Positions 9,514-52,643 of a DNA stretch of 52,643 nucleotides are shown here, one piece after another. A program made the translations under genes and the position numbers. How positions within the stretch are numbered: the stretch's first letter is position 1; each line of letters opens with the position of its first letter. Source of the DNA: a virus; the IMG/VR virus record IMGVR_UViG_3300028801_000004. One strand, given 5' to 3'. The notes beneath the pieces were generated by a model that worked only from the letters and a program-made list of their open reading frames with translations, searched no databases and was not told where the DNA came from.

Positions 9514-9563
9514 TTAAACCGCTGCACAACACTCGTACGAGTAACTAGCAAAGGAGTTTCAAA

Positions 9564-9968: not shown

Positions 9969-9971
9969 TCC

Positions 9972-10328
9972 ATGAAACTCTCCCGCCACGCCGCAGAGAA
10001 CCTCGTGAAAGCCTGGCGAGCAGACGCCACGATCGGACAGCTAGGTGACGACGTAATTGCTGAACTGCACGCTGCGATCGGCTTCGTGCCCTTTGAGGTG
10101 CGGGTGCAGGTGATGATGGGCTGCACGAAGCTGACGACAGAGCTTCTGTGGGGCGGGGAATTCGATGCAGCCACAGCAGCAATCCAGAAGTTTGGGGTGT
10201 CGGTCGGCGTGAGGCTCTCGCCGCATGGGGTCAAGGCAGGTAGCGCGACGGCACAGAGGCGGGCAGATAATAGAAAAGCCAGGAAACTCGGGGCCATTCC
10301 GCCCGGCTCTTGGGGCACCAAGAAGTAA
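9972..10328 (+). CDS. Hypothetical protein (118 aa)
   Basis: Starts 3 nt after the upstream stop. Coding-like composition. Confidence 0.55.
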   Translation: MKLSRHAAENLVKAWRADATIGQLGDDVIAELHAAIGFVPFEVRVQVMMGCTKLTTELLWGGEFDAATAAIQKFGVSVGVRLSPHGVKAGSATAQRRADNRKARKLGAIPPGSWGTKK

Positions 10329-10409: not shown

Positions 10410-11243
10410 ATGGCAACGAAGAAAGCAGCAACCACAGCAGTGACGAATTACGACGAAGAGTTGGCAGCACAGGCCCAAGTGGCCGCGGGCATGGAAGCCT
10501 CGACCGCAAGCGGCCAATTCTTTGGCCTGCAGTCGGGCGTCTTGACCTACAACGACGCGCCGCTGCCAAACAACGAGATGGCCGTTATTATCCTCGACGG
10601 TATCTTGGAAAACGTGTTCTACGAGGGCGCGTACGACCCCCAGACGCCGCAGTCGCCGATGTGCTTCGCATTTGGCCGCGACGAGGCAACGATGGCGCCC
10701 CACGAGCTTGTGGTGGCCGCAGGGAATCAGCAGTGCGGCGCCAGTGGTCAGTGTCGCGGCTGCGACAAGAACGAGTTCGGTTCGGCCGACATCGGTAAGG
10801 GCAAGGCGTGCCGCAACACGCGCCGCCTCGCGATGATCTCCGCAGGTACGCTGGAGCAGCAGGTGCGCAATGGTCCGACGATGTTCCAGGCGTACGACGA
10901 CCTGGCGTACTTCGAGACAGCGCCGATCGGCTACATGAAGTTGCCGGTGATGAGCGTCAAGGGCTATGCCGGGTTCGTGAAGCAAGTAGCCGGCGCCATG
11001 TCGCGCCCCCCGCACGGCATATTCACGAAAGTGCGCGTGGTGCCAGACCCCAAGAGCCAGTTCCGTGTCCTGTTCGAGCCCTTGGGGGCGATTCCCGGCG
11101 AATTGATGGGCGCGATCATGGCCCGCCATCGTGAAGCGGTCGATGCGATCGAGTTTCCATACACGCCAGCTGAAGAGCGCGCGGCACCGGTGAAGAAGGC
11201 AGGCGCTCGGGCCGTGGCGCCGGGCAAGGGTAAGAAGTACTGA
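10410..11243 (+). CDS. Conserved-looking phage protein with a Cys cluster (C..CGASGQCRGC..GKGKACRNTRR); function unknown, possibly DNA-binding
   Basis: AAGGA SD. 277 aa. Position in the replication/recombination arm. No family recognised with confidence. Confidence 0.65.
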   Translation: MATKKAATTAVTNYDEELAAQAQVAAGMEASTASGQFFGLQSGVLTYNDAPLPNNEMAVIILDGILENVFYEGAYDPQTPQSPMCFAFGRDEATMAPHELVVAAGNQQCGASGQCRGCDKNEFGSADIGKGKACRNTRRLAMISAGTLEQQVRNGPTMFQAYDDLAYFETAPIGYMKLPVMSVKGYAGFVKQVAGAMSRPPHGIFTKVRVVPDPKSQFRVLFEPLGAIPGELMGAIMARHREAVDAIEFPYTPAEERAAPVKKAGARAVAPGKGKKY

Positions 11244-11380
11244 GCAGGAAAGCCTGGGCAATAAGGCAGCTAAGCGGCTCTTCGGGGCGGCATTGTCCTA
11301 GCACCTAATCCGAGTGGGTGTTTGCCGAATAGATTCGGAACCGCCCAGGTTCTACGATTCAAAACGCTGAGGACGAGATC

Positions 11381-12097
11381 ATGACCGAAGAAAAGATCAA
11401 CGCACTGGCCGAGGCCGTGCGCGAGGTGATTAGCCATAATCCTAAATGGTTCGCCTGCAAGAACGAACTTTGGGTCGCGCTGACCGAGTTCGACGCTCAG
11501 CGCCTGCACAAGACTTCCCACCTGCATCCGGTGGCGGGGGAAGAGACCACTACCGTGGTTCGGGCGGAGCCCTTCGTGGTCAAACACTACGTTGGCGAGG
11601 ATCGGCCGAGCGTAAAGGGCAATGGGTTCGATGGCTTGGAGATTGGTACCACCCGAGAAGACTCAGCCGATTTTATCAACTTCATCAATGACCGGATTGC
11701 TGTCGGTGGCAAGTACACCCCACCGCAGAAGTCGACACGTCTGCCCCCGGTGGCGGGGGAGGAGACTCCGTACGCTGCAAGTCCCGTGAATTCTTGGGAG
11801 TGGCTGCGTGGCGTCATGGACGGCCTCCCAACACGAGAAGAGCAGCTCGGTGGCCAGCGCACGTTGTACGTCCAGAAGGATGAGGTCATGGGGTGGATTG
11901 CAGAGGGGTTAGAGCGGCACGCAATCTTCGCGGATCGCCGCCCGCAACTGCCCAAGGATATGCAAAAAGTCCTCGAAGGTCTGGAACTTGTGAAACTGAA
12001 CATCCCGGCCCTGGGCTCGAACGAGCCGATCGGGGACCTTGAACGATTGCACTATGTGCTCGACGCGGTGATCAAGACTGTGAAGGGAGGTGCGTGA
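11381..12097 (+). CDS. Hypothetical protein (238 aa) with a duplicated PVAGEET motif
   Basis: GAGGA lies 8 nt upstream. A near-identical 20-mer occurs at 11528 and 11747. Confidence 0.7.
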   Translation: MTEEKINALAEAVREVISHNPKWFACKNELWVALTEFDAQRLHKTSHLHPVAGEETTTVVRAEPFVVKHYVGEDRPSVKGNGFDGLEIGTTREDSADFINFINDRIAVGGKYTPPQKSTRLPPVAGEETPYAASPVNSWEWLRGVMDGLPTREEQLGGQRTLYVQKDEVMGWIAEGLERHAIFADRRPQLPKDMQKVLEGLELVKLNIPALGSNEPIGDLERLHYVLDAVIKTVKGGA

Positions 12098-12369
12098 TGA
12101 AACTGACTCGATCTATCGAGCGCTGGGCCAAATGCTCACCCGATGTCATGAGCGAAATGTCCATCGCTGCGATCTGCTTTGCTTTCAAGGACGCGAAGCA
12201 TTATATTGCCGCCCTCACCGCCTCGCATACAGCACTACTAGCAGCGCTTGAATGGGTGATGGAGAACGGCCGGCTGAGCTACGCTCGCCGTCTGAAAAAT
12301 GATCCCGGCGATGCCGCCAAGCTGGTTTCGATACGCGCCGCTATTAAGGCCACGAAGGAGTTGGGGTAA
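12094..12369 (+). CDS. Hypothetical protein (91 aa); paralogue of the 12572-12769 product
   Basis: ATGA overlap. Shares ..ASH(T/A)ALLAALE.. and ..AAIK(A/T)(T/A)KELG with the 65-aa ORF. Confidence 0.6.
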   Translation: MMKLTRSIERWAKCSPDVMSEMSIAAICFAFKDAKHYIAALTASHTALLAALEWVMENGRLSYARRLKNDPGDAAKLVSIRAAIKATKELG

Positions 12370-12575
12370 TGGGCTTCGTACGCTATCTATTAGGAGTTAC
12401 CGCGATCTGTGCGGTCTGCGTCTTGATCTTTGCAGTTCTGATCATTGCTGCCGGTATGACCTTTAGCGGCGACACCGTAGAGTGGTGGCCCAGGCCTTTA
12501 GGGGTTTTTATCTTGGGTGCCTTTTTTATAGCTGTCTGTTACGTCTTCTATAGGTCGGGAAAGGAACAATCATGA
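12369..12575 (+). CDS. Small membrane protein (2 TM)
   Basis: TAATG overlap. Hydrophobic segments AICAVCVLIFAVLIIAAGM and LGVFILGAFFIAVCYVF. Confidence 0.6.
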   Translation: MGFVRYLLGVTAICAVCVLIFAVLIIAAGMTFSGDTVEWWPRPLGVFILGAFFIAVCYVFYRSGKEQS

Positions 12576-12769
12576 GCAAACCTATTAGCGATCCCGACAA
12601 GAGCACTGGAATTTATCGTGATGCCCTCGCCGCCTCGCATGCAGCACTACTGGCGGCACTTGAGATGATCCATCTGAGCTTTGGCGGTGGAAATGTGATC
12701 ACGTTCAGTGACAGCGATATCGAGCAAATAGCAGCCGCTATCAAGACTGCAAAGGAGTTGGGATGCTGA
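12572..12769 (+). CDS. Hypothetical protein (65 aa); chimeric paralogue
   Basis: Its SD plus first 7 codons match the start of the 12988 gene. Its body matches the 12094 gene. Confidence 0.55.
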   Translation: MSKPISDPDKSTGIYRDALAASHAALLAALEMIHLSFGGGNVITFSDSDIEQIAAAIKTAKELGC

Positions 12770-12975
12770 ACTTCGATGCATGGCTGCGCCAGCCAATAGC
12801 AGAAGCGCCAAAAGAGCGAGAACTTCCCGAGGGAATAACCGAGGACGGCAAAGGCGGATATGAGGCGCTATGCCGATGCTGCGAGAGATACAAGCCGTTG
12901 CACTGGGACATATCAGAAGTCCCGATGGAAGGCTATGAACACTGGTGCGGCGAATCTCCGCGTTGCTGTCCATAA
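12763..12975 (+). CDS. Cys-rich small protein (70 aa)
   Basis: CRCC...C...CC pattern. Overlaps the upstream gene by 7 nt. Confidence 0.5.
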   Translation: MLNFDAWLRQPIAEAPKERELPEGITEDGKGGYEALCRCCERYKPLHWDISEVPMEGYEHWCGESPRCCP

Positions 12976-12987
12976 AAAGGAACAATC

Positions 12988-14190
12988 ATGAGCAGACCTA
13001 TTAGCGATGAGCGGGCGGCGTTTGAAAAATACTGGACCGACAACTATACCGGGCCGCTGACCGTCGATGACTATCCGGCGACTGACGCACAGCTTTGCTG
13101 GCTAGGTTGGCAAGCAGCGCTCACCCACAAGAGCGATGGGGCTGTGCCTGCATCGGACTTGAGGCCTGGAATACCTTGCTCCGAATACCGTGCGGGCTTT
13201 CGCCAAGGGTACTCAGAGGGTTCAGTAGAGGGTGCATTTGATCGCGCTATCGAATCTGCTGCGCCCGTCGCTGTGCCGGTAGATGCGAACCAAACGCAGC
13301 ACGACGATGACGATGCCGTTGATCTCTTCGCGGGTGCGATGAAAGCGAAGTTGGCAGTGGCGCGCGCTAACGGTCGCAGTGGGTGGGAACAGTGCTCTGG
13401 GGCGGATCTTTCCACGATGCTGCGCGAGCACGTAGAAAAAGGCGATCCTCGGGATGTAGCGAACTTCTGTATGTTCCTGTGGAACCTGGAACAGAGAATT
13501 GCCGCAATTCCTGTTTTGCCGGTAGATGCCGGAGTGCGTGCGCGAGCCGTAAGAATCATTGAGCAATTAGAGGTCGCTACGACGCCAGACATTCTGCTTA
13601 AACATACGCAGATCGCTGGCTTAGCTTTCTCGCTTCTGCGGGAGATTGTCGCCACCCCCGCGCCCCATAGCGGTGAGGCTGCACCCGCGCAGGGTGAGCC
13701 GACCGACGAAACGCTAGAGCAACTTGCCTCCTCGTGCGGTTTATACGGCGCTCGGAAAGCCGCTGTTGCGTATGCGCATGAGGTATTGAAGCTCGCCGCT
13801 CCCCTTCCTCGCGCCAGCGATGCGCCTATCGGTGAAGCTGGGGGAGTGGTGGCGGAGCCGGCGTTTTGGGCTGACGATGAGCAAATGGCCGAATGGTATG
13901 CGGGAAAGCGTGGAGCGATAGATATTCGCGTCGTCTCAATTCGGCTTGGCTCTTGTAACACGCCGCTATTCGCCGCCCAGCCGCAAGCAGCGCCGAGCGG
14001 GCTGAGTGATGCGCAGGTCAGGTACACCAAAGAATCCCTAGGTAAGGCGTATAGGCTCGGGCAGGTGTACTGGCAACAAGCTGACAGCGACTCTTGGAGG
14101 CAGCAAGATAAGTCGAGTGAGACGCAGGATAAGTTCGAAACTTTAGTTAGCGAGACGATAGATTATCTACGTCTTGTGCAAGGATCTTGA
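12988..14190 (+). CDS. Hypothetical multi-domain protein (400 aa)
   Basis: AAAGGA SD. The segment AVDLFAGAMKAKL..NGRSGWE..HVEKGDPRDVANFCMFLW resembles a widespread uncharacterised phage/prophage domain (from memory). Confidence 0.7.
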   Translation: MSRPISDERAAFEKYWTDNYTGPLTVDDYPATDAQLCWLGWQAALTHKSDGAVPASDLRPGIPCSEYRAGFRQGYSEGSVEGAFDRAIESAAPVAVPVDANQTQHDDDDAVDLFAGAMKAKLAVARANGRSGWEQCSGADLSTMLREHVEKGDPRDVANFCMFLWNLEQRIAAIPVLPVDAGVRARAVRIIEQLEVATTPDILLKHTQIAGLAFSLLREIVATPAPHSGEAAPAQGEPTDETLEQLASSCGLYGARKAAVAYAHEVLKLAAPLPRASDAPIGEAGGVVAEPAFWADDEQMAEWYAGKRGAIDIRVVSIRLGSCNTPLFAAQPQAAPSGLSDAQVRYTKESLGKAYRLGQVYWQQADSDSWRQQDKSSETQDKFETLVSETIDYLRLVQGS

Positions 14191-32571: not shown

Positions 32572-35499
32572 CTAGGGGTTGTCGTCTTGCTCGTCGGTAC
32601 TCGGTTGCGTCTGTGCTGCAGCGCGAGCCACTGCTGCCGTCGCTTGCACCGGCCGCCGTCCGGTGAGGATACTCGCAACCGTTTTCAACACACTCGGGTC
32701 ATCAGGTGCCAAACTCGCCAAGTGCCGCATATCATCGACCGCTGTCGGGCTCGTCATCACGGTGGCCAGCTTTCGATACGTGCCTCGACGCGACATATCG
32801 CGTAGCGCGGATACGATCGCGGCCGTCACGCCAGCAGGTCCGTGAATCAATGCTGCAGGTGCCGCGTCCAGCCCGATTGTAGCAGCCTGCTCAGCCGTCG
32901 AGGTGGGTTGTGTGGTCTTGGGCATCGCGAGCTTGCCTGTGGCATCCAACACGTCGAGAAACCGCCCAAAACCCTGGTACACAGCAGTCGGATCCTGGCC
33001 CTGGGCCTCAGCCGTTTTCTGTATCATCGCGCGCACGTTCGCGGCCTCCCGGGGCGTGCCTTCGAGCGAATCACGCAGTGTGGTGCCGGTCGTTGTGAGC
33101 GTCTGGCCGCGCTGTGACTTGAGCGACGAATTCAGCTTGTCTTCCAGGTACGAGCGCACCAAATTCGGGAACGCAGTCTTATCGGACTTGCCGAGCTGGT
33201 CTGCGATAAAGCCGATGCGCTGCGGCGTCGCATTCTTGCCACTCAACTCACCCATCGCGCGGCTCGTCACAGCCTCGGTCTGATCGTTAGCGCCGCGGCC
33301 CGCGATCTTGCCGATCGGCCCCTTGAGCAGCGGGTCGACCAATTCAGTCGACAACTGCGAGTAGATTTGCCGAGCATTCTTGATGGCGGGCGACACGTCT
33401 TGGATCAGGTCGTCGAGGTTGTTCAGGTGATTTTTAATCACGCCAGCCGTCGTGCGCTGCTCGGGCGTCGGGTTGAGACCAAGCTGGGTTTTATCTCGAT
33501 TCGCCTTGTACACGCTCTCAAGCTGCGAGGGCAGCGTGATCGGCTCGCCGTTCGGGGCCAGGTCGTTGCGGTACTGACTGAGGATCTTGCCCTCGGTGGT
33601 GTCGCGCCCCGCGGCCCGGATATCGCCGTCGAGTTTCGCGAGAAACGAGTTCACTTTCGACGTCACGGCAGGTAGGTTGCGCTGCGCGAGTTGGTCCTGG
33701 GCTTGGTAGAAAGCCCGCTCGGATGCGTCGATCTGAGCGGCGTACTCCATACCCTTGTTGATGGCCTCGTATGTGCCCGCCTTGCCCTGGTCGGCCGCTG
33801 CCAAGTTCCGATTCGCTTTCACGTCGCCGGCGAGACCGAGCTTACGGGCGATCGTCTTGTTCGCTTGGTTGATCTGGTCGTTCGTGAATGCGTGCAGCTT
33901 GCCCGCCGTCTGCACCGCGCTCGCGCGCGAGTCACTGAGGTCTTGGATCTTCTGTGGTAGCTGAGCGAGCTGATCAGACAAATCCATCGTCTCGACGTCC
34001 GCGGCACGCTGTGCTTTGTACCCTGGTCCAGCGGCGGCAGTGCGGTAGGCCTGAGCCTTGCGCAACACCTCGTCGGCGGCAGTCTGCGCTGCGTTGGCAG
34101 CCTCATTCGGCCCTACGTTCTGCCCAATACCCGCGACTTGCTTGCGCGCAGCGTCCTGCACTTGCTGCGCGCGGCCCGCCACGGCATCTTGAATGACGTT
34201 CTTGGTGACGGGCGCTGCTGCCACGTCGGCCGTGAGTTGGCGCAACTGGCCGTTCGCCGGCAGGGCCTCGGGACCGAGCAGCGGGATGCCCTGCTTTTGG
34301 GCATCGGCCAGGAGCGAGCGTGCCTGATTCCAATCTTCAGGTGAATTGTTCTTGACGGCCTGTTGCAGTAACTTCGCAGCGTTCTGCGTCGCGCGGTCCG
34401 ACGAGCGCAGCAGGTTCGACACCGTAAGCGGGGCAGCACCCGCCGTGAGCCCCAGCACGAGTTGCCCGACAGGGCCGACACCGTTCTCCCGGCCCGTACT
34501 TGCTGCGGCGGTACCAGCGCCGGCCGCGAAGGCTTGCGTAAGAGGCCCTGTCGCTAGCTCAGTAGCCGCGTTGCGCACCACCGGGTTCGTGGCCACCTTG
34601 CCCAGTGCGCCAGCCACACCCGAACCGGTCAATGCCCCGACGCCCGCGGTGGCCACGTCGCCCACAACGCGCTGGAATGGGGTCTGAGCTTCGGGCACGC
34701 CCGCCGCGGTCATCGCGTTCTGCACGGTCTGCCCAGGCATCGCCAGTTGTGGGATGTTCGTGCCGGCGAGTTTGTTAATGCCGCTCGTGGCCGCATTGAC
34801 GCCTGTGTTGAGCAGGTCGGCTACCCCTGTCACGGGGGACGTCAGGGCCGTAACTACATTCCTGGCGCCGAGCCCTAGGCCCTGGGCAGCGGTCAAATCT
34901 TTCGGCTCTTGGTCGGGCGGCGGTACGCTAGGTACCGGAGCAGGCCCGAGATTCACGCCTGAGTACCAATCATCTGAGGCAGCAGCGGGGCTGCCCTGCC
35001 CCACAGCAGCTGAGGCTGCTTGCACCTTGTTGGCATACTTCGGATCCTGTGCGTAGCCTTGCAGGCCAGCCGTGAACTTCTTCGGGTCATTGCCCGCGCC
35101 CACGGCACCTGGGTACGTGGTCTTGATCAGATCGACGTACCGATCCGCGAAAGCATCTGGGCTATCGAACTTGGCGTAAGAGTCGGCAGTGCCGGTCTGA
35201 TTGTCGCGAGCTTTCACGCCCGTAGGCGCTTTGATGTTGCCGAGGTTGTTCGTGCCAGGAATAACCTTCTTGCCCCACGCAGTCTCTTCGCCCCATTGCC
35301 CAAGCACTAGGCTCGGGTCGACCCCGAGTGCTGCGCCGGCCTTGGCCGCAGCAGCGCCGTACTTGGTCTTGAATGCGTCGATCGTGCTCGCGGGGGCGTT
35401 GCTAGGGACTGTGCTCGACGCCGGAGTGGGGGCATCTGGGGCCCCCGGCGTCGAGGCAGCCGGCGCAGGGGCCAGAGCAATGTCGTCATCCCAGCTCAC
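32572..35499 (-). CDS. Large ejection/internal virion protein with an N-terminal glucosaminidase (FlgJ-type) peptidoglycan hydrolase domain (P22 gp16 position)
   Basis: LGVDPSLVLGQWGEETAWGK...NNLGNIK...YAKFDSPDAF resembles the mannosyl-glycoprotein endo-beta-N-acetylglucosaminidase domain. 975 aa, Ala/Gly/Gln-rich. GTGA overlap. Confidence 0.8.
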   Translation of the reverse strand: MSWDDDIALAPAPAASTPGAPDAPTPASSTVPSNAPASTIDAFKTKYGAAAAKAGAALGVDPSLVLGQWGEETAWGKKVIPGTNNLGNIKAPTGVKARDNQTGTADSYAKFDSPDAFADRYVDLIKTTYPGAVGAGNDPKKFTAGLQGYAQDPKYANKVQAASAAVGQGSPAAASDDWYSGVNLGPAPVPSVPPPDQEPKDLTAAQGLGLGARNVVTALTSPVTGVADLLNTGVNAATSGINKLAGTNIPQLAMPGQTVQNAMTAAGVPEAQTPFQRVVGDVATAGVGALTGSGVAGALGKVATNPVVRNAATELATGPLTQAFAAGAGTAAASTGRENGVGPVGQLVLGLTAGAAPLTVSNLLRSSDRATQNAAKLLQQAVKNNSPEDWNQARSLLADAQKQGIPLLGPEALPANGQLRQLTADVAAAPVTKNVIQDAVAGRAQQVQDAARKQVAGIGQNVGPNEAANAAQTAADEVLRKAQAYRTAAAGPGYKAQRAADVETMDLSDQLAQLPQKIQDLSDSRASAVQTAGKLHAFTNDQINQANKTIARKLGLAGDVKANRNLAAADQGKAGTYEAINKGMEYAAQIDASERAFYQAQDQLAQRNLPAVTSKVNSFLAKLDGDIRAAGRDTTEGKILSQYRNDLAPNGEPITLPSQLESVYKANRDKTQLGLNPTPEQRTTAGVIKNHLNNLDDLIQDVSPAIKNARQIYSQLSTELVDPLLKGPIGKIAGRGANDQTEAVTSRAMGELSGKNATPQRIGFIADQLGKSDKTAFPNLVRSYLEDKLNSSLKSQRGQTLTTTGTTLRDSLEGTPREAANVRAMIQKTAEAQGQDPTAVYQGFGRFLDVLDATGKLAMPKTTQPTSTAEQAATIGLDAAPAALIHGPAGVTAAIVSALRDMSRRGTYRKLATVMTSPTAVDDMRHLASLAPDDPSVLKTVASILTGRRPVQATAAVARAAAQTQPSTDEQDDNP

Positions 35500-36965
35500 G
35501 GCTTCACCCCTTCCTTGCCATTGGGCAGGATCACGTGAGTGCCGGAGGGCAGCGCATCGTACTCAGCTTTGCTCGCGGGCTTCGCTGGCCCATCTCCTGC
35601 AGCAGGGGCACCTTGCTTTTTCTTAATGAAACTACTCAGCGTGGCTTTCGAATCCTTGCTGTTGTACAGGTTGTCGACATCCTCAACTGTGAACGGGACG
35701 GCTTGTTTTATCGAAGCCGAGACCTGATCCGCGAGTTTCTTAGCCCCAGGATCAGTCCGGCTATTCGCCTTGAGCGTATCCATGCCGCCATCTACGATCT
35801 GGCGCATTTCCGCGAGCTTGTATGCCTTTGTCCAGTTCGTGTCCGTTGCGCTGAAGCGAATCGCGTCCATTTGGTGCGTGAGTGAGCCACTCGGCGCCAA
35901 GCCCTGGGCTTCAATGGCTGCCAAGTTACGCTGCACGCCTGCGATTTTCACGTTATAGGTCTGGGCTTCTTGAGGAGTCAGCATGTTGGCCAGCGACTCC
36001 TTACCTGCGTCGAGCAAGCTCGGCCCTGGCGTCCGGCCCCCGAAGAACCCAGAACTTTGCGAGATCGGGCCGCGCGCGATATTCGCGATGTCCTTCGTGG
36101 CCAAGTTGGCTGAAGAAAGGATGCGATTCGTATAGACCGCTTCGCGCCCACCGGCTGCTCCGGTGCTGCCCGATTCTTTGGCCAGATGGTCCTTAATCGC
36201 CTGCTTGTACTCAGGCGTGCCAGTGCCATACGTCGCCGCTGCTTCTTTCATGAATGGGTCTTGTCCTGCGCTATCAGCCGCGCGCTGCGAGTTCGCGTCG
36301 AGACGAGACTCGCGCTCCTGGTCGATCTTTGCACGGGTGTCCGCCGCGCGCTCGGCCAGCACAGTCTTGTATTGGGGGGAGCCCGCGATGAACGCTTTGT
36401 TGATAGTAGGGTTAAAGGGGCCTTGTATAGTCGTTGCCACGTCATTCGGGATGGCGCCAGTCTTATTTGCGTCTGTAATCTGTTGATTGCGCTGCCGCCC
36501 TGCCTGCTCGGCCGCCTCTTGCGGCGAAGTGCCGCTGGCGAGCAAGTTGTCGTATAGGTCTTGCGCACTCGTGGCGATATCCACCATCTTGTCGTGCTGG
36601 CGGTCGTTGATATTCATGCCCAACAGACGCTGGTTGATATTGTTCGTAATTGTCTGCTGCTGTTTCTGCTGCGTTGCCACAACACTATTTTTCAGCTGCA
36701 CTCCCATATCGGGGTTAACCTGTGACACCTTGCCGATCGTGGCGTCCGTGGGTAGCCCCGTTTGTGGGTCTACGGCGCCGGGCTGCTGAAATAGCTGCAG
36801 CACAGCATTCTTCTGCTGAGCTTGCTGCTGAGCATCCTGCACCTGAAGCTGCGCGAGCTGATTGCGGTACTGCATCTGCTGTGCAGCGGCCACGCTCTGG
36901 GCAGTCGGAAGCTGCGGGAATTTATACCCCAACGGGATACTTGCGTCGACGGTGTCGCCTGCCAT
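35496..36965 (-). CDS. Ejection/internal virion protein (P22 gp20 position, 489 aa)
   Basis: Gln/Ala-rich coiled N-terminus. Size and order match P22 gp20 (about 471 aa, from memory). Confidence 0.6.
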   Translation of the reverse strand: MAGDTVDASIPLGYKFPQLPTAQSVAAAQQMQYRNQLAQLQVQDAQQQAQQKNAVLQLFQQPGAVDPQTGLPTDATIGKVSQVNPDMGVQLKNSVVATQQKQQQTITNNINQRLLGMNINDRQHDKMVDIATSAQDLYDNLLASGTSPQEAAEQAGRQRNQQITDANKTGAIPNDVATTIQGPFNPTINKAFIAGSPQYKTVLAERAADTRAKIDQERESRLDANSQRAADSAGQDPFMKEAAATYGTGTPEYKQAIKDHLAKESGSTGAAGGREAVYTNRILSSANLATKDIANIARGPISQSSGFFGGRTPGPSLLDAGKESLANMLTPQEAQTYNVKIAGVQRNLAAIEAQGLAPSGSLTHQMDAIRFSATDTNWTKAYKLAEMRQIVDGGMDTLKANSRTDPGAKKLADQVSASIKQAVPFTVEDVDNLYNSKDSKATLSSFIKKKQGAPAAGDGPAKPASKAEYDALPSGTHVILPNGKEGVKP

Positions 36966-36977
36966 GATCTTAGCTCC

Positions 36978-37730
36978 TTAGCCTATTAAGGAATCGCCCG
37001 CACCAGACACCTGGCCCGCCGCACCGCTCGTCCCGCCTACCCCACCCAGATTATTAATCGCGCTGCTGAATGCCGGGTTGTTGAACAGAGACTGCAAACC
37101 GCTGCTCACCGAGTTCGCCGACCCAATCGTACCCGCCGCTTGCGCGTTACCCGCGCCGATAATATTGCTACCTTGCTGCGCCGCTGAAGCCGCACCTAGA
37201 CCGCCGAGGTTGGCCGCGGCATTCTGCCCCGAGTTCGCGGTGCCCGAGAGCCGGGAGAAAATATTGTTCAACTGGGTCTGGTAGTTATTGAATTCTTGCT
37301 GGTACGAACTTTGGGCCGTGTTCTGCCCATAGTTCTGTAGCGCCAACAGGGTCGCCCCCGAGTTCACGCCACCGAGCGCAGACGCTTGGTTCGTGATGGC
37401 CTGCCCACCCTGCTGCAATGTGAAGTTGTAGAGGGGGTCGCTTGCGGGATTGTATTGGAACTGCTGGATCCCGAGTCCCGCGTCGGCGGGGTTGATGTTG
37501 CCTCCGGGCAACCCGAGAAATCCCGCCAAAGCCGCATTCGCGTTGTTGCCAGTCTGCAAGTACGGCGCCAGGTTGCCCGTAGTCTGATTGAACTGGGCTT
37601 GTTCGAGCGCGGTCGCGTTGTTAGCCGACGACGCCTGTTGATTCGCAGCGCTGGAAGATGCACTTGAGCCGATGGCTGCGCTACCGACCGCGCCCGCTGC
37701 CGCGACGCCCGCACCAATAACGATTGCCAT
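36978..37730 (-). CDS. Gly/Ala/Asn/Gln/Ser-rich low-complexity ejection protein (P22 gp7 position, 250 aa)
   Basis: AGGAG SD. Hydrophobic Gly/Ala N-terminus. Extreme N/Q/G/A/S composition. Confidence 0.6.
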   Translation of the reverse strand: MAIVIGAGVAAAGAVGSAAIGSSASSSAANQQASSANNATALEQAQFNQTTGNLAPYLQTGNNANAALAGFLGLPGGNINPADAGLGIQQFQYNPASDPLYNFTLQQGGQAITNQASALGGVNSGATLLALQNYGQNTAQSSYQQEFNNYQTQLNNIFSRLSGTANSGQNAAANLGGLGAASAAQQGSNIIGAGNAQAAGTIGSANSVSSGLQSLFNNPAFSSAINNLGGVGGTSGAAGQVSGAGDSLIG

Positions 37731-37738
37731 GATGACTC

Positions 37739-38191
37739 CTAGAGGATCTTTTTAACAACAATTTCAGTAGGCTGGTAGCCTAGAAACTTGAGAAATTTGC
37801 TCTTGTCCGAGTGTAATTTAGTCGTCTGTATCACTAACTTCACACCCCGGGCTTTCAGAGCCTTCTCGGCCTCCTTAAATAGCCGTAAAGCGACTCGGGG
37901 CTTATCTCTATGCTCGGGCACGATATAGTACACATCTACGAACCCCACTAACGTGGAATTATAGTGCAAATGTGGCTTCACAACGGTCGAATGGTACCCG
38001 ATCATCACACTATCCAACCTGACCGTAAGTAACTGTAGCTGACCTGCTGCATCCAACCCCTGGTAGCCTGCTACGTCCACATCGAGAGGTACCTCATCGC
38101 GATTAAGCGCAATTTCTTCCCAGTGCCGGGCGAGCAGAATGCGCGCCTCTGGGTAGAATTCCCCAAATCGCTCTAATTGATAGGTGATCAC
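37739..38191 (-). CDS. GNAT-family N-acetyltransferase
   Basis: Acetyl-CoA-binding-like stretch (VPEHRDKPRVALRLFKEAEKALKARG) and a C-terminal beta-strand pattern. 150 aa. GTGA overlap. Segment is visibly AT-richer than its flanks. Confidence 0.65.
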   Translation of the reverse strand: MITYQLERFGEFYPEARILLARHWEEIALNRDEVPLDVDVAGYQGLDAAGQLQLLTVRLDSVMIGYHSTVVKPHLHYNSTLVGFVDVYYIVPEHRDKPRVALRLFKEAEKALKARGVKLVIQTTKLHSDKSKFLKFLGYQPTEIVVKKIL

Positions 38192-38757
38192 GGTGCGCCA
38201 CGCCCAGTGTGGATATCTATGATGAGGTGCAAGCGATCGTCTACGCTGTTATTTATAACTTCGTGCTCGGCCTGATTCTGGAACCACCAAAATTCTCCCG
38301 TGCGCATCTGAACTTGCTCGTCTCCAGCGCGGAAAATACATCCTGGGGCGGCCTGTAGCACGATGTGGAAGCGCTCGTAGTACGCCGCATGGTCCCCTGA
38401 ATCGGTATGCGGAGTAATCCGCCCGCCCGGGGCCAACTTCGTGATCATGCAACGCCCCAAGCGCTCTCCTTGCACGCGGGCCATGATCTGGAATATCAGG
38501 AACCGAGCCTCGGGTAGTCTTGCGAGGGCGGGGTAGTTTATTGACTCGTGCTGATCAAGAATCGAGGGGTCTTCACCACCGTTTTCAAACAGCGAGATAT
38601 CATTGAAACGTAGCCAGATATCGGATACCTGCGCATGCGGGGTATTTTCATGCGTCGTGCGCAACGTATGCTGATTCCAGAGTTCTGGCATCTGTTTAAG
38701 CGCTACCAGAAGTGGAAGTACGTCGACATTCTCACCCATTTTGAAGAAATTTATCAC
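38188..38757 (-). CDS. Cupin-fold Fe(II)/2OG oxygenase, aspartyl/asparaginyl beta-hydroxylase-like
   Basis: LAPGGRITPHTDSG (HxD), ..GEFWWFQNQAEHEVIN (distal His), ..RLHLIID pattern. GTG start overlaps the upstream stop; an alternative ATG is at 38739. Confidence 0.65.
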   Translation of the reverse strand: MINFFKMGENVDVLPLLVALKQMPELWNQHTLRTTHENTPHAQVSDIWLRFNDISLFENGGEDPSILDQHESINYPALARLPEARFLIFQIMARVQGERLGRCMITKLAPGGRITPHTDSGDHAAYYERFHIVLQAAPGCIFRAGDEQVQMRTGEFWWFQNQAEHEVINNSVDDRLHLIIDIHTGRGAP

Positions 38758-39104
38758 GGCGTCACCGTCAGGCCGCTGATCGTCATGTTCACTTTCGACG
38801 CTGTATCGCAGAATGCGAAGATCAAATCACCCGCGATCAGCTCCATGCCCGCCAACTCTGGCGACACGTAGGTCTCACCAGGCTGTAGTACACGCCCGAT
38901 CGGGTTAATCACCTCGTTAGCAGACGACGCAGAGCCCGCGGCGGGTACGATATTGACCGTAATCGCGTGCGTGGCCGCGTCCGTGTTGCAGAATACCGCG
39001 CGCTGGATGATTTGCACCACGCCCGCGCCGGGCGCCGAGCCGTAAGATGCCGATGCGCCGGTCAAAAGCGTGGTGGGAACCAGTTTAGTGGCTTGGGTCG
39101 TCAT
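38754..39104 (-). CDS. Hypothetical virion-module protein (116 aa)
   Basis: AGGAG SD. Beta-rich. Position between the needle-position gene and the enzymes. Confidence 0.55.
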   Translation of the reverse strand: MTTQATKLVPTTLLTGASASYGSAPGAGVVQIIQRAVFCNTDAATHAITVNIVPAAGSASSANEVINPIGRVLQPGETYVSPELAGMELIAGDLIFAFCDTASKVNMTISGLTVTP

Positions 39105-39119
39105 GCGAAGCTCCTGAAA

Positions 39120-39866
39120 TTAAGCGGACTCATATGTGCCGCCTATCGTCATTTTATTGCCCGATGCGCCGGGGAAAGTATCATCGTAGAATACGATCTC
39201 TACGTGGTTACCATCAGGCACCCCGGTCGTACCCGACAGAGCCTTGCCCGTAGCGCTTATCTCTCGACCGGCGCAAGTCTGGAACCCAGAGGGTAGTGAC
39301 ACGTTCGCCTTTACCGGTAATGTTGCCAGCACGGCCGAGGCTGCAGTGCCCACTGTGGTTACATCGACCTCTAGCATAAAACTTACTGTCTTGCCGATAC
39401 GCTGAAATCTGCCTGCCGCTGACACCGTGGTGAATGTACCTGTGTTGGCTGTCACGACGGGGGTGTATGCCTGCCAAGAGCCTGGGGGTATCTGGTCGAG
39501 CTGAACCAAGTCATGTAGCAGGCGTCGATCCGGCTTGACGACGGGCTCGAAGTCCGATGCTCTCAGGTCCGTGCGCCGAGCGCTGGGCGCCAGGTCATTG
39601 AATAGCTGTAGCTGTTGTCTCGCGGCAGCAGGCACCTCAAGCGGGTGGTTAAGAATCGCGTCGTACAAATCCTGCTTGAGCTTGGCCAAGTCATCGATCG
39701 TGGATGTCTGGTCGAGCTGCGCCAAGAGTGACACGTCGGCCAGCGTGCCTGTGCCACCTGGAGGGGTATTCGGCTGCACCAGCACGTTCAAGGTCGCGAG
39801 AAAAATGAACCACTCGCGGGCCACCGTGCCATCTTTATTCAGAAAGGGGAGTTGGGCGCTTATCAT
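39120..39866 (-). CDS. Hypothetical tail protein (P22 gp26 needle/plug position, 248 aa)
   Basis: ATGA overlap with the gp10-like gene. Assignment rests on synteny and size only. Confidence 0.45.
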   Translation of the reverse strand: MISAQLPFLNKDGTVAREWFIFLATLNVLVQPNTPPGGTGTLADVSLLAQLDQTSTIDDLAKLKQDLYDAILNHPLEVPAAARQQLQLFNDLAPSARRTDLRASDFEPVVKPDRRLLHDLVQLDQIPPGSWQAYTPVVTANTGTFTTVSAAGRFQRIGKTVSFMLEVDVTTVGTAASAVLATLPVKANVSLPSGFQTCAGREISATGKALSGTTGVPDGNHVEIVFYDDTFPGASGNKMTIGGTYESA

Positions 39867-41302
39867 ACGGGCACCGCATCGACTTCAGCGGCCACAATCG
39901 CCACCGGTACCGGGTCAGTGCCCGACAATTCAAAGATGCGATCCAGCCCGCCACCGCGCTTCGTCATACCCAAGCGCTGATAGATGATACGCGTGCCGGT
40001 ATTGCCCACTCGGTTGCCGTCCGTCCACACCTCGTTAGACCAGTTATTGCCGTCATCATCCGACCAGCGCAGCACGAATTGCGGCGTCGTGCCATCGGGG
40101 ATGCTTAGCCCCGTCTGGCAATCGATCAGCAGTGAGTCGAAGCGCATCGGCTCGTACACGCGCTTGCCGGGGGGCAGCGCGCGCCAGGAGCGCAGCCACT
40201 TACGCACGGCGCCATTGTCGGTGTAGGTATTGTTGTCAAAGGCGTACAAGTTGCCATTCTGGAAATCCCCCACGACCTGCTTGCCGTAGGCATAGGCGAA
40301 CGTGGCGCCGATATGGCGGCTAAAAGTGCCGTTCTCGAATGCCGCGCGCTCGTGCCACAACTGGGTCGAGCCGTCGTAGCAGAACGTTTTGTTGCCCGTG
40401 GGGAATGTGATCACATAAAAGAAGTGCCCAGTGTCCTGGTACACGTACGCGGTGGCGTCGCTGATCAGCGACATCTTGCCGATCTCAAACTCGATCGAGT
40501 GCGTCGAGATGCGTACCGCTTGGTAACCGTTCGACATGTACACGACACCCTGGCCCTGCTCGTCGGCGCCGAGCCACACGATACTGTCGCCAATGCGGGA
40601 AACTGAGTACGCCGCGGCGCACCCCTGCGGGATCTGTACGCCTTGGAGACGCTGAAACGCGAAATTAGGCAGCCCCGCGTTGATCCACACTTCGGTGCGG
40701 TTCGTTTTGAAAATCCAGACCTCGCGGTGCAAATCGTACAGTGCCACGATGCCACCCGGCGCGGAGTCGGCCGACGTGAAGTTCAAGGCGCTCCAGGTCG
40801 TGAAGTCGTTCAAGTTCGATTGGAACCACTCTTCGGTACCCACGAGGTTGACCAGCGCAAATCCATCCTGGTACGCGAGCAGCGAGGGTTGCGTGACGAA
40901 CGGAGCGCCGGGGAGCACCTGTGTAAAAGTGAGCGTGCCGAAGATCAGCACCCAGCCGGCAGCACCGTCGACCACCAGCAGTTGCAGCCCGTTGTCGACC
41001 ATTTGCACGACGCCAGTGTTGGTCGTGAGCGTGCCGACCAGAACCGAGCCGAAGATACTGCTGACACTGTACAGCCCGTTGCCACTGACCACATAAAGAG
41101 TCCCGGTGGAGGCCGTATAGGAGCCTCGCTGCGGGCCTGGCCCGACCGTGCCGAGCAAGTCTAGCCCTGGGCACCCGAAGAGCCCAGCGACGGCTTTCCC
41201 ATCCTTGCCACTGACGACTTCAGCGTATAGGTTCACGAGCCGGTTATCGGCCAGCGTCTTAGACCGGCTAACCGAATACCCGCCGAGGATCGGGGACTCC
41301 AC
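39863..41302 (-). CDS. Tail hub / packaged-DNA stabilisation protein, P22 gp10-like (479 aa)
   Basis: N-terminal ..NRLVNLYAE....GK......PGL.. pattern. Beta-propeller-like composition. Size matches gp10 (about 472 aa, from memory). GTG start. Confidence 0.6.
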   Translation of the reverse strand: MESPILGGYSVSRSKTLADNRLVNLYAEVVSGKDGKAVAGLFGCPGLDLLGTVGPGPQRGSYTASTGTLYVVSGNGLYSVSSIFGSVLVGTLTTNTGVVQMVDNGLQLLVVDGAAGWVLIFGTLTFTQVLPGAPFVTQPSLLAYQDGFALVNLVGTEEWFQSNLNDFTTWSALNFTSADSAPGGIVALYDLHREVWIFKTNRTEVWINAGLPNFAFQRLQGVQIPQGCAAAYSVSRIGDSIVWLGADEQGQGVVYMSNGYQAVRISTHSIEFEIGKMSLISDATAYVYQDTGHFFYVITFPTGNKTFCYDGSTQLWHERAAFENGTFSRHIGATFAYAYGKQVVGDFQNGNLYAFDNNTYTDNGAVRKWLRSWRALPPGKRVYEPMRFDSLLIDCQTGLSIPDGTTPQFVLRWSDDDGNNWSNEVWTDGNRVGNTGTRIIYQRLGMTKRGGGLDRIFELSGTDPVPVAIVAAEVDAVPV

Positions 41303-41305
41303 GGA

Positions 41306-41617
41306 TCAGGACTCCGCCACCTTCGACAGCGCCGCCATGCGCTTCTTGGCCGCCATCTTGGCATCGCGATGGCGGGGCTTGTTCATGTGGATCTCGGCCG
41401 CGCGCGAAAGTGTATGCACGTCGCTCTCGGGGCCGTAGTGCTCATGGATGTCGGCGCGCGTGATCGGCACGACCTTGGCCGCTTTCATCTGGGCATTACG
41501 CTGTTGGGCGTAGTTCTCCATCGCCGACATCGGCTGGCCATTCTTCTTGTCAGCCTTCTTGGGGGCGTCGGACTTGGCCTCGCGCATTTTCATCGGGGAC
41601 TTCTTTTTCGTTGCCAT
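41306..41617 (-). CDS. Basic hypothetical protein (103 aa)
   Basis: ATG 41617 lies 8 nt after AAGGAG. The ORF-track TTG start at 41692 is less likely. Confidence 0.5.
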   Translation of the reverse strand: MATKKKSPMKMREAKSDAPKKADKKNGQPMSAMENYAQQRNAQMKAAKVVPITRADIHEHYGPESDVHTLSRAAEIHMNKPRHRDAKMAAKKRMAALSKVAES

Positions 41618-42938: not shown

Positions 42939-43139
42939 TCAATCTCCTTGGGGTTGAACGGGCACGACATGCGCGTCACGCCAGCCCTTGATGTTGCCTT
43001 TGATGGAGGCGAGATTCACTTTCTCGGCCAGCCCGAAGAGTGCCTCGGGGTTGTCCATCGCGGGGCCAATCGGCACTTCCATCTTTTGTTCGGTGTCGTG
43101 CACGAAAACCTGATAAAGCTGCTTCTTGAGCGGGGTCAT
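42939..43139 (-). CDS. Hypothetical protein (66 aa)
   Basis: ATGA overlap with the GroES-like gene stop. Confidence 0.5.
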   Translation of the reverse strand: MTPLKKQLYQVFVHDTEQKMEVPIGPAMDNPEALFGLAEKVNLASIKGNIKGWRDAHVVPVQPQGD

Positions 43140-43450
43140 GCTGCCACCTCTTGATACGTGCCCACAATCGCGTCGCGGCGGATCAATGTGAAGATTTCGC
43201 CCTCGACCTTGTGCTCCATGCTGCCCACGGGGCTCAGGCGAACCTTGTCGCCCGGCGCCAAGTCCCACATCGTATCCAGTCGGCCATTCGGCAGCCGCAA
43301 CCCAGGCCCAACCGCCACGACCGTGGCGTCCACGATCTCTTTCACCAGACCATCATCGATCTGAATGCCAATATAAATCCCGCTCGGCGTCACGTCGGCA
43401 GGCTTGTGCATCTTGACCACGATCTGGTCACGTAGGGGGCGAATCTGCAT
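43136..43450 (-). CDS. GroES/Cpn10-like co-chaperonin (104 aa)
   Basis: MQIRPLRDQIVVK....G.....V.AVGPG....G......APGDKV......E....GE.F.L....DIVG is collinear with E. coli GroES (MNIRPLHDRVIVK...VLAVGNG...VKVGDIV...). GAGGA SD upstream of ATG 43450. Confidence 0.75.
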   Translation of the reverse strand: MQIRPLRDQIVVKMHKPADVTPSGIYIGIQIDDGLVKEIVDATVVAVGPGLRLPNGRLDTMWDLAPGDKVRLSPVGSMEHKVEGEIFTLIRRDAIVGTYQEVAA

Positions 43451-43520
43451 CTTTATCCTCAGCATAAGTAGTAAAAACGGTCGTGGAGGCTTTCGCCCAC
43501 CACGACCCAAGAGTGAAGCA

Positions 43521-44972: not shown

Positions 44973-45485
44973 TCAAGTTAGGTAGGCTACGACTGCTGGT
45001 ATTCCAACATCTGCCAAAAGCTTTTCGTAAGCACCAATTCTCACATTGCAAGTGTGGCAGAGCAACCCACGCACTTTCCCGGTTTTGTGGCAATGGTCTA
45101 CATTCCAACGGCCTGCGGCCCATTTGCCAGTCTTCCCTGTTCGACCTACCTCGCTGCTCTTGCACAAGGCGCACTTATTATCTTGCGCTAGCACCATCGC
45201 ATCGTACTGCTCGACAGTCAAACCATACGTGTACTTCAGTTGCCGCTGCCAGCCAAGTCTTGCGTAAGCATACATCTCAGGGTTGTCTACCCTATGCTCC
45301 TTGGCCTTAATCTTGCACGCCTCTCGGTACTTCTCGTTCTTTGCGTAATAAGCGCGCATTTTTTCTTTGTCGCACTCTTTACACTGGTTGCGCAAGTAGC
45401 CGCGCTTTTTATCAGAACACCAGTACTCCGAGAGAGGTAGGCCCTTCTGGCACTTCTTACAAACTTTCGTTGTTTCTGGCTGCAT
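44973..45485 (-). CDS. Endonuclease VII-family (HNH-like) nuclease with N-terminal zinc fingers; free-standing homing-endonuclease candidate
   Basis: CALC....VDHCHKTGKVRGLLCHTCNVRIGAYE is the Endonuclease_7 signature. N-terminal CKKC...CKEC. AT-richer segment. GAGGA SD. Confidence 0.8.
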   Translation of the reverse strand: MQPETTKVCKKCQKGLPLSEYWCSDKKRGYLRNQCKECDKEKMRAYYAKNEKYREACKIKAKEHRVDNPEMYAYARLGWQRQLKYTYGLTVEQYDAMVLAQDNKCALCKSSEVGRTGKTGKWAAGRWNVDHCHKTGKVRGLLCHTCNVRIGAYEKLLADVGIPAVVAYLT

Positions 45486-52412: not shown

Positions 52413-52625
52413 CTACTTCTGCCAGCTTGAATCGTTGGGGTTGCTACCGCCGCCGTAGTCCAATCCCTTGAGGTCGTCAGGAGCTTGCTCGGAGCTACTG
52501 CGGTGCTTAGGACCGCGGGACTTGGCCCCGAATGCCTTACCGATCGCTGTGAAAGCTCGATCGAATCCGGCCTGCGGGTCGAACCCTTGCGGAGCGTCTG
52601 ACGAACCTGTGCGCCTGGTTGCCAT
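52413..52625 (-). CDS. Hypothetical Gly/Ser/Asp-rich protein (70 aa)
   Basis: The ORF starts inside the terminal overlap, and its 5' 109 nt are duplicated at 1-109. No clear SD. Confidence 0.4.
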   Translation of the reverse strand: MATRRTGSSDAPQGFDPQAGFDRAFTAIGKAFGAKSRGPKHRSSSEQAPDDLKGLDYGGGSNPNDSSWQK

Positions 52626-52643
52626 GATGTCAGTGCTTACTTC
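52517..52643. repeat. Right copy of the 127-nt terminal overlap
   Basis: Identical to nt 1-127. Confidence 0.95.

Follow-up and report, generated by a model that had tools for sequence, protein, structure and literature searches.

The genome of a virus in IMG/VR (record IMGVR_UViG_3300028801_000004; its 52,643 nucleotides are together called the window here) encodes, on the minus strand between positions 37739 and 38757, an oxygenase of 189 aa and, directly after it, a protein of 150 aa with the fold of the GNAT acetyltransferases. These two genes form one unit: they are coupled, their order is conserved across divergent phages and prophages, and in several independent lineages they are fused. 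The pair is thus a widely conserved and sometimes fused one, and not a stray insertion. The gene that follows codes, with few exceptions, for a protein that begins with a Gly/Ala zipper, the ejection protein termed internal virion protein B (IVP-B). What is new here is the coupled or fused 2-oxoglutarate (2OG) oxygenase, along with an alternative partner of the Cupin_2 family, neither of which is described in the literature searched; the acetyltransferase-like IVP-A was already known. No paper linking an oxygenase of the family PF05118 to an internal virion protein module was found in that search. It is a real possibility, if one somewhat short of an even chance, that this unit enzymatically matures the ejection proteins of its phage.

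Conservation, gene order and fusion

Homologous loci were drawn from IMG/VR (35 loci), from isolated phages and from bacterial genomes, where they belong to prophages. A tblastn search recovered the oxygenase from three phage records only (Pseudomonas phage PfAn1, Limnohabitans phage DC33 and a spring-water podovirus), and at the nucleotide level the only relationship to an isolated phage is a single 350-nt match to PfAn1. In PfAn1 (PV364321), XRX11816 corresponds to the oxygenase, XRX11817 to the GNAT and XRX11818 to IVP-B. The prophages are found in Paraburkholderia (P. saeva LMG 31841 among them), Cupriavidus, Comamonas, Janthinobacterium, Massilia, Acinetobacter and Dyella, and the oxygenase is also present in assemblies of Edaphobacter (Acidobacteriota). 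The family comprises 840 clusters at 90% identity, and its hidden Markov model (HMM) has 4524 matches among 1.84 billion representative proteins, 348 of them at E<=1e-30. A query with the tail hub as a single protein returned three loci only. On average, the oxygenases are 55% identical to that of the window, while hub, GNAT and IVP-B homologues are 35-38% identical; correlations of oxygenase or GNAT identity with hub identity were uninformative.

Gene order was counted wherever the DNA reached far enough downstream, which left 59 distinct loci of the oxygenase. A GNAT gene directly follows the oxygenase gene in 50 of them (47 by automated calling, and L047, L065 and the fusion in L083 by eye), and in four others the next gene encodes a small Cupin_2 protein. 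The most common junction between oxygenase and GNAT is a 4-nt overlap (27 of 47 loci). In the window, the same kind of start/stop overlap, GTGA, occurs both at this junction and at the one between the oxygenase gene and the gene upstream, g116. A preliminary description, made from the letters of the window and its open reading frames (ORFs), had reported both enzyme genes and their translational coupling, and was right on both counts. Its suggestion that comparison with relatives might reveal the pair as an insertion finds no support in the conserved order, with a GNAT or Cupin_2 gene next in 54 of the 59 loci.

Fusions were sought among the best 150 representatives of the oxygenase HMM search. 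Oxygenase and GNAT are joined in P0244, P0251, P0270, P0276, P0316, P0351 and P0356; both Pfam domains score above their cut-offs in the four that were scanned (P0244, P0270, P0351 and P0356), and the other three were recognized by eye. Oxygenase and Cupin_2 are joined in P0247, P0253, P0357 and P0368, and in the reverse order in P0295 (P0247, P0357 and P0295 by Pfam scan). The linkers span approximately 25-45 residues. Because the nearest unfused relatives differ from one fusion to the next, such fusions have arisen several times. The gene for P0244 lies directly before that for an IVP-B-like protein; a query of viral contigs with P0244 found nothing.

In some phages the unit has moved. The fusion P0351 belongs to a BPP-1-like temperate phage (L086), in which it is located between the large terminase and the portal and is followed by a zipper protein of 86 aa. 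In Limnohabitans phage DC33 (L002), an unfused oxygenase, a GNAT and a small zipper protein are likewise found between terminase and portal. Oxygenase, partner and zipper protein thus remain a trio even where they have been relocated within the genome. DC33 itself (PQ492659, 39 kb) is filed under Inoviridae in GenBank despite its terminase-like and portal-like proteins, a label that is likely an annotation error.

The Cupin_2 partner is a His-rich protein of 96-124 aa with the motif H-x-H-x-Y-x-H, as in L044 (9863-10237) and L031 (6552-6842). The former locus, which is the closest relative of the window as judged by its hub, carries this version of the unit. In the phage with an oxygenase-Cupin_2 fusion at L088 (JGI 3300060313), a giant protein of 4614 aa is encoded nearby, from position 6642 onward, and contains SLT, InPase, LPD1 and helicase domains; the unit is therefore also present in phages that have a giant multidomain protein beside the ejection block.

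The oxygenase

The GTG start of the oxygenase gene is supported by the near-invariance of M1 and F4 among homologues, whereas the gene caller used on the public contig placed the start at Met7, giving 183 aa. The protein matches Asp_Arg_Hydrox (PF05118) at E 4.9e-19 and 69.2 bits, against a cut-off of 22.6. Its AlphaFold2 model (pLDDT 88.9) has the double-stranded beta-helix (DSBH) or cupin fold. The best Foldseek match is L-proline cis-4-hydroxylase (4p7w, E 2e-10), followed by AspH (5apa) and proline 3-hydroxylase; the probability is 1.00 for 4p7w, 5apa and 1e5s, with TM-scores of 0.6-0.7. A profile search of the PDB gave the same two leading enzymes (4p7w at 1.7e-8, AspH at 2.5e-6).

The catalytic residues are those of the PF05118 family, which includes human AspH, LpxO and bacterial proline hydroxylases and is characterized by the DSBH fold, an HxD...H metal triad and an arginine ten residues after the second histidine. 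The triad, H117-x-D119...H165, and N169 are invariant throughout 64 distinct homologues whose identity falls as low as 25%; the predicted 2OG-binding arginine, R175, is kept in 63 of the 64. The triad region aligns with those of AspH and 4p7w. Given the family match, the modelled fold and the conservation of these residues, there is very little doubt that the 189-aa protein is active as an Fe(II)/2OG oxygenase.

Its substrate is another matter. The preliminary description called it a cupin resembling aspartyl/asparaginyl beta-hydroxylases; the family and the HxD...H motif stand, while the substrate label was overstated, as an enzyme acting on free proline ranks ahead of AspH. Membership in the AspH type of protein Asp/Asn hydroxylase was considered and set aside: matches to AspH cover its oxygenase domain only, and the phage protein, at 189 aa, is too short to include the TPR substrate-binding region, which it lacks. 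Assignment to LpxO, the lipid A hydroxylase, is not supported. The NCBIfam model NF033391 gives 18.8 bits (E 6.6e-4) where the equivalog cut-off is 500, and the match pairs residues 102-183 with positions 139-219 of a 297-position model, which is the catalytic core only.

The GNAT-fold protein and the IVP-A slot

The assignment of the 150-aa protein to the GNAT fold is weak by sequence and clear by predicted structure. It matches PHROG 1249, annotated 'acetyltransferase', at 1.6e-8, and a sequence match to Naa30 (7l1k) has an E of 0.049. Its AlphaFold2 model (pLDDT 93.0) matches the aminoglycoside acetyltransferase AAC(3)-Ia (6bvc) and RimI (7n1l) at a Foldseek E of 1e-9 and with TM-scores of 0.72-0.77, so that the earlier GNAT call is borne out at the level of fold. 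Among the best predicted viral structures is ORFS of Vibrio phage VpV262 (TM 0.89). Several relatives pass the Acetyltransf_1 threshold by sequence, including the proteins of VpV262 (30.2 bits) and DC33 (24.0 bits) and the four scanned fusions (25.7-35.6 bits), and a motif-A-like R-x-G-x-x-G/A is kept in most of the 63 GNAT homologues.

The block in the window runs from the hub through the needle-position gene, g116, the oxygenase and the GNAT to the gp7-type protein, a 489-aa protein and a 975-aa muralytic protein. In P22, the order is genes 10, 26, 14, 7, 20 and 16, where gene 14 encodes a 151-aa 'virion stability factor' (Pfam DUF2824) and lies directly before gene 7. The preliminary description had the pair interrupting a P22-like order; on the contrary, gene 14 occupies exactly the slot of the GNAT gene. 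In T7, the order is genes 12, 13, 14, 15 and 16, with gene 13 directly before gene 14; the T7 record gives gene 13 the annotation 'internal virion protein', and its Pfam family (Phage_T7_Gp13) is labelled 'probable scaffold protein'. ORFS of VpV262 lies directly before ORFT and the 1536-aa ORFU. T7 gp14 and P22 gp7 are the counterparts of IVP-B.

Hardies et al. described an ejection module whose first gene, IVP-A, is small and matches acetyltransferases; T7 has it, as do most phiRIO-1-like phages, and IVP-A genes of the acetyltransferase family are described for T7 and for the groups of P22, epsilon15 and phiRIO-1 (PMC4819975). In some phages, an unrelated small protein fills the slot, such as the gp39 family in phiRIO-1 (PMC4819975). 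Bischoff et al. equated the GNAT of SIO1 and the cobaviruses with T7 gp13 (PMC6775973). The GNAT of the window is the IVP-A of its phage, since it occupies the slot that T7 fills with gene 13 and P22 with gene 14, has an acetyltransferase fold and PHROG, and precedes a protein in the same PHROG as P22 gp7. It resembles the IVP-A proteins of these podoviruses (T7 gp13, P22 gp14 and the VpV262, SIO1 and cobavirus GNATs) in size (approximately 140-160 aa), in its location directly upstream of IVP-B and in its acetyltransferase-family fold. T7, P22 and VpV262 differ in having no 2OG oxygenase gene, whereas here an oxygenase precedes IVP-A, is coupled to it and is sometimes fused with it. P22 gp14 (DUF2824) was also tried as a recognizable GNAT homologue; the profile comparisons described below were marginal or negative, and the link between gp14 and acetyltransferases is for that reason taken from PMC4819975.

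The ejection protein IVP-B and its N-terminus

The 250-aa protein encoded directly downstream of the unit belongs to PHROG 598 ('DNA ejection'), as does P22 gp7. The preliminary description of an ejection protein rich in Asn, Gln, Gly, Ala and Ser holds: these five residues make up 68% of it, with 12% Asn, 1.2% Asp and no lysine at all. As there is no lysine, epsilon-N-acetylation of this protein can be ruled out. Its N-terminus forms a Gly/Ala zipper (MAIVIGAGVAAAGAVGSAAIG), and its gene has an AGGAG sequence 8 nt before the ATG. A search of the PDB with the 250-aa protein returned nothing meaningful.

By an automated rule, the protein encoded next after the unit has a Gly/Ala-zipper N-terminus at 49 of 62 loci, as opposed to 6.6% of the ORFs in the same loci, and several of the misses are start-codon errors. 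Typical N-termini after the pair are MVAAAVVGG and MAIVIGG, and T7 gp14 starts similarly (MCWAAAIPIAISG).

The second residue appears to vary with the partner of the oxygenase. When a GNAT is present, IVP-B begins M-V/A/G, with proline in none of approximately 38 hand-curated cases. When it is absent, IVP-B begins M-P-W/F in eight of eight loci (L031, L032, L034, L044, L038, L003, L084 and L090), in which the partner is a Cupin_2 protein or there is none; in two further loci of the Cupin_2 type, L088 and L089, the N-termini are of yet other types. This tally was made by hand, a stricter automated caller of N-termini having performed poorly. A proline at the N-terminus is not normally acetylated. 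The restriction of proline N-termini to loci without a GNAT would thus fit a GNAT that acts on the alpha-amino group of IVP-B. The swaps of partner are polyphyletic.

In some homologues of IVP-B, a leader precedes the zipper (L063, L065, L067 and L089, and L039 at 9369-10058). The leaders of L063, L065 and L067 contain K-L-R-G-E, similar to the 'GRKLRGEE' of P22 gp7, the first 20 residues of which are cleaved by OpdA of the host according to the P22 record. N-terminal processing may be a common theme of IVP-B.

Proposed role and alternatives

In the model that we favor, the unit would be expressed late, from the structural operon, and would act on the ejection proteins, IVP-B foremost among them, to mature them enzymatically as they are loaded into the procapsid or beforehand. 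A side chain would be hydroxylated by the oxygenase; the GNAT would transfer an acetyl group, the most plausible acceptor being the alpha-amino group that is exposed when the initiator methionine is removed. A narrower version, in which oxygenase and IVP-A would constitute a dedicated two-enzyme system of post-translational modification, with hydroxylation and N-alpha-acetylation both directed at the IVP-B zipper protein, is rather doubtful. Modification of ejection proteins fits best with the conserved gene order, the coupling, the fusions and the constant adjacency to IVP-B even where the unit is relocated. Modification of the neighboring ejection protein was one of three options put forward in the preliminary description, and it is the best supported of them, although it continues to be a proposal.

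Several considerations weigh against this model. The searched literature contains no virion proteomics for any isolate that carries the pair, and a search for a paper on PfAn1 found none. The closest solved relative of the oxygenase, at approximately 20% identity, hydroxylates free L-proline and not a protein, and because the nearest characterized enzyme acts on a free amino acid, the class of substrate cannot be read from the family name 'Asp/Asn hydroxylase'. The covariation between proline and the absence of a GNAT represents few independent events and depends on hand-curated N-termini. Set against it, too, are the profile comparisons across the IVP-A slot. Comparison of the gp14 family with the GNAT family by hhalign is marginal (P=0.014), with an alignment that is collinear over 140 columns, motif A included, at low mact only; other comparisons between gp14 and GNAT profiles, including single-sequence hhalign, were negative, and T7 gp13 gave no signal against the GNAT profile. 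A Pfam scan of 16 gp14 relatives found DUF2824 alone and no GNAT family, and the gp14 profile searched against the PDB reached PseH (4xpk) at E 0.23, together with artefactual matches to designed beta-propellers.

The catalytic competence of the window's own GNAT is uncertain, to judge from its sequence. Its Acetyltransf_1 score (16.9 bits, E 0.0077) falls under the cut-off of 20.7. The reference GNAT motif A, the pyrophosphate-binding loop, is Q/R-x-x-G-x-G/A, and in the window and the four closest homologues listed the corresponding stretch is R-D-K-P-R-V-A, with a one-residue insertion and no glycine. The degenerate motif and the low score together suggest that this particular protein may be catalytically dead. 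Moreover, small proteins of unrelated kinds can fill the IVP-A slot, as Cupin_2 does here and the gp39 family does in phiRIO-1, which suits a structural or chaperone role equally well. A further possibility, which strikes us as unlikely, is that IVP-A is a non-catalytic, GNAT-shaped chaperone or scaffold and that the oxygenase is an auxiliary passenger which the late operon happens to tolerate at this site. The degenerate motif and the unrelated folds in the slot would be expected on that account, and the 'probable scaffold protein' and 'virion stability factor' labels of T7 gp13 and P22 gene 14 agree with it, as do the low GC at third codon positions (GC3) of the pair and the failure of oxygenase identity to track hub identity. 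In L044, for example, the hub is 71% identical to that of the window and the oxygenase 46%, with Cupin_2 instead of GNAT, while in L004 the hub is 39% identical and the oxygenase 71%; this discordance means that the oxygenase is exchanged horizontally between phages. A passenger beside a chaperone does not readily account for the repeated independent fusion of the oxygenase with whichever protein holds the slot, or for the modal 4-nt overlap at the junction. In addition, most GNAT homologues keep R-x-G-x-x-G/A, the fused ones pass the Pfam cut-off, and the active site of the oxygenase is strictly conserved.

Composition and expression signals bear on a different possibility, in which the pair is a moron or has a metabolic function. 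As the preliminary description had noticed by eye for the GNAT segment, the pair is AT-richer than its surroundings: its GC content is 0.513, compared with a mean of 0.585 (sd 0.030) for the window, which puts it in the 2nd percentile of 1-kb windows. The GC3 values of the two genes are 0.605 and 0.570, compared with 0.70-0.80 in neighboring structural genes. Simple consensus scans of the coding strand from 36800 to 41500 found no promoter-like site, and the sole terminator-like site in that interval is inside the hub gene; lacking a promoter or terminator of its own on that strand, the pair appears to belong to the late structural operon. A pair that hydroxylates lipid A in the manner of LpxO, or that hydroxylates and acetylates a small molecule such as a free amino acid or polyamine, would be consistent with the low GC and GC3, with the free-proline hydroxylase as best solved relative, with the weak LpxO match and with the classification of such genes as auxiliary metabolic genes in published phage papers. 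We nevertheless consider it improbable. The LpxO match is confined to the core of a longer model and lies far under its cut-off, there is no independent promoter or terminator, the oxygenase fuses with the IVP-A GNAT, and 54 of 59 loci, spread over several bacterial orders (Pseudomonadota, Acidobacteriota), show the same position. The moron altering the cell envelope that the preliminary description had entertained is not supported by these same observations, only the deviation in composition being in keeping with one.

Three Variovorax genomes (L050, L051 and L081) encode an oxygenase that is 63% identical to that of the window and has no GNAT, hub or ejection-protein gene nearby. In V. robiniae (L081, JBBKZS010000005, 9392-10645), it adjoins a SET-domain protein (E 2.8e-9) within an island of approximately 12 kb that contains an integrase, AlpA and a primase (DUF3987) and no virion genes; this island looks like a phage satellite. 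The target of the oxygenase thus need not be encoded next to it, another point to be set against a role confined to IVP-B. An oxygenase paired with a SET-domain methyltransferase in the absence of virion genes would act on a target in trans, possibly in the host, and this leads to a third alternative, in which oxygenase and GNAT are loaded into the capsid, injected, and modify host proteins at the start of infection. T4 Alt is a precedent for an injected modifier of host proteins. The location of the genes inside an internal virion protein module and the 'internal virion protein' annotation of T7 gene 13 are in line with packaging, as are fusions of IVP-D to domains that must act inside the cell, such as the methylase of H66 gp60 (PMC4819975). 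In the phiRIO-1 group, by contrast, the slot gene is called 'nonstructural' (PMC4819975), the two proteins have no targeting signal, and a host target would leave both the portable linkage to IVP-B and the covariation with its N-terminus unexplained. We assign injection of the enzymes a low probability.

Least probable, and by our estimate very much so, is an anti-defence function, in which an immune protein of the host would be inactivated, for instance by acetylation as with AcrVA5. The existence of a GNAT among the anti-CRISPRs is a general precedent for it. The pair is located in the late operon and has no promoter of its own, PADLOC returned nothing (its library covers defence systems and not anti-defence proteins), and conservation of the slot from T7 to P22 (PMC4819975) argues for a morphogenetic role. 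For the maturation model, then, the rivals that are kept alive by the low GC and GC3, the horizontal exchange, the Variovorax loci and the unrelated folds in the slot are the chaperone, the packaged effector and the small-molecule enzyme.

The phage genome and its structural module

The virus is a podovirus with a P22-type portal, scaffold, coat and hub. The exact direct repeat at the ends of the window (Table 1) indicates a complete circular genome of approximately 52.5 kb. The phage encodes its own DNA polymerase, primase and helicase, and near-identical contigs of approximately 52.5 kb recur in many metagenome assemblies of the European Nucleotide Archive.

Table 1. Features of the window discussed in the text
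Feature	Positions	Strand	Basis
Terminal direct repeat	1-127 / 52517-52643		exact, 127 bp
ATP-grasp-like protein, 446 aa	30786-32126	minus	Pfam GARS_C on public contig
Third ejection protein, 975 aa, IVP-D / gp16 position	32572-35499	minus	Pfam Glucosaminidase 3.2e-15; PHROG 3513
Second ejection protein, 489 aa, IVP-C / gp20 position	35496-36965	minus	position; same-order homologues in L007, L044
Ejection (pilot) protein, 250 aa, IVP-B / P22 gp7 type	36978-37730	minus	PHROG 598, 2e-26
GNAT-fold protein, 150 aa, GTG start	37739-38191	minus	PHROG 1249, fold
Oxygenase, 189 aa, GTG start	38188-38757	minus	Pfam PF05118
g116, conserved, 116 aa	38754-39104	minus	stop overlaps oxygenase start (GTGA)
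Needle-position protein, 248 aa	39120-39866	minus	C-terminus matches end of PHROG 32881
Tail hub, 479 aa, P22 gp10 type	39863-41302	minus	PHROG 578, 2e-105
GroES/Cpn10-like co-chaperonin	43136-43510	minus	PHROG 3188, E 5e-11; Pfam Cpn10 on public contig
Ala/Gly/Thr-rich protein, 479 aa	43521-44960	minus
Endonuclease VII	44973-45485	minus

On an identical public contig, the hub is also recognized as Pfam Phage_stabilise (PF11134). The needle slot is variable, with gene clusters that differ from relative to relative; the N-terminus of the window's needle-position protein (MISAQLPFLNKDG) is similar to that of its counterpart in L044 (MISNQVPWLGPDG). A homologue of g116 is located upstream of the oxygenase in 21 other loci among the first 38 (a cluster of 22 with the window), and g116 has no match in Pfam, PHROG or the PDB. 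Beyond IVP-B, the 489-aa protein in the IVP-C position has no family match in Pfam or PHROG, and the muralytic glucosaminidase domain of the 975-aa protein in the IVP-D position is N-terminal.

Downstream of the ejection block, the ATP-grasp-like protein recurs in divergent phages at 32-35% identity (L082 at 12652-14004, L031 at 11088-12410, and L032, L034 and L072). With it, the late module may include a third enzyme.

The co-chaperonin gene lies inside the structural module, between the head genes and the tail-hub genes. The endonuclease VII gene, located between the coat gene and the gene for an Ala/Gly/Thr-rich protein of 479 aa, has a low GC3 of 0.58 and resembles a mobile element inserted among the head genes. 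The 479-aa protein itself is without a family match, and its residues 166-246 match short ORFs just upstream of the oxygenase in two loci (L033, 5744-5986, 49%; L047, 4747-4986, 56%), which suggests that this segment of approximately 80 aa is a mobile domain.

Relation to known systems and significance

Neighborhoods of a comparable kind have been described in bacteria. Iyer et al. found dioxygenases of the beta-hydroxylase family near acetyltransferases, sulfotransferases, phage tail-collar proteins and glycine-rich peptides (PMC2938197). The likeness lies in the combination of a PF05118-type oxygenase, an acetyltransferase and a Gly-rich predicted substrate (PMC2938197); the difference is that those are bacterial operons resembling secondary-metabolite clusters, whereas the unit described here is embedded in and travels with a phage ejection module and fuses with IVP-A. 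One homologue of the oxygenase, P0332, has an N-terminal extension of approximately 220 aa that appears sulfotransferase-like by eye only, Pfam having found no domain there.

By analogy only, an acetyltransferase of N-termini paired with a hydroxylase of proteins recalls the maturation chemistry of bacterial modifiers of ribosomal proteins, namely RimI/RimJ (GNAT N-alpha-acetyltransferases) and RoxA/YcfD (a cupin 2OG hydroxylase). RimI is a small GNAT of similar fold (7n1l, TM ~0.75). RoxA/YcfD differs from the phage oxygenase in being a JmjC protein and not a member of PF05118.

The ejection proteins of short-tailed phages build a DNA channel across the Gram-negative envelope. To our knowledge, little is understood of what keeps these proteins soluble, how they enter the capsid and what primes them, and we know of no mechanistic explanation for the IVP-A gene (T7 gene 13, P22 gene 14), which has gone without one for decades. 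An intact oxygenase coupled or fused to IVP-A offers a concrete and testable handle on ejection-protein maturation. If the two-enzyme model holds, the 'assembly' or 'stability' class of T7 gp13 and P22 gp14 would be a family of maturation enzymes, and phages without a GNAT would block the same N-terminus with proline. The aspartyl hydroxylases and GNATs that are listed among phage 'auxiliary metabolic genes' are more likely to be components of virion morphogenesis instead, and annotation practice would change accordingly, with such phage genes reread as parts of the machinery that builds the virion.

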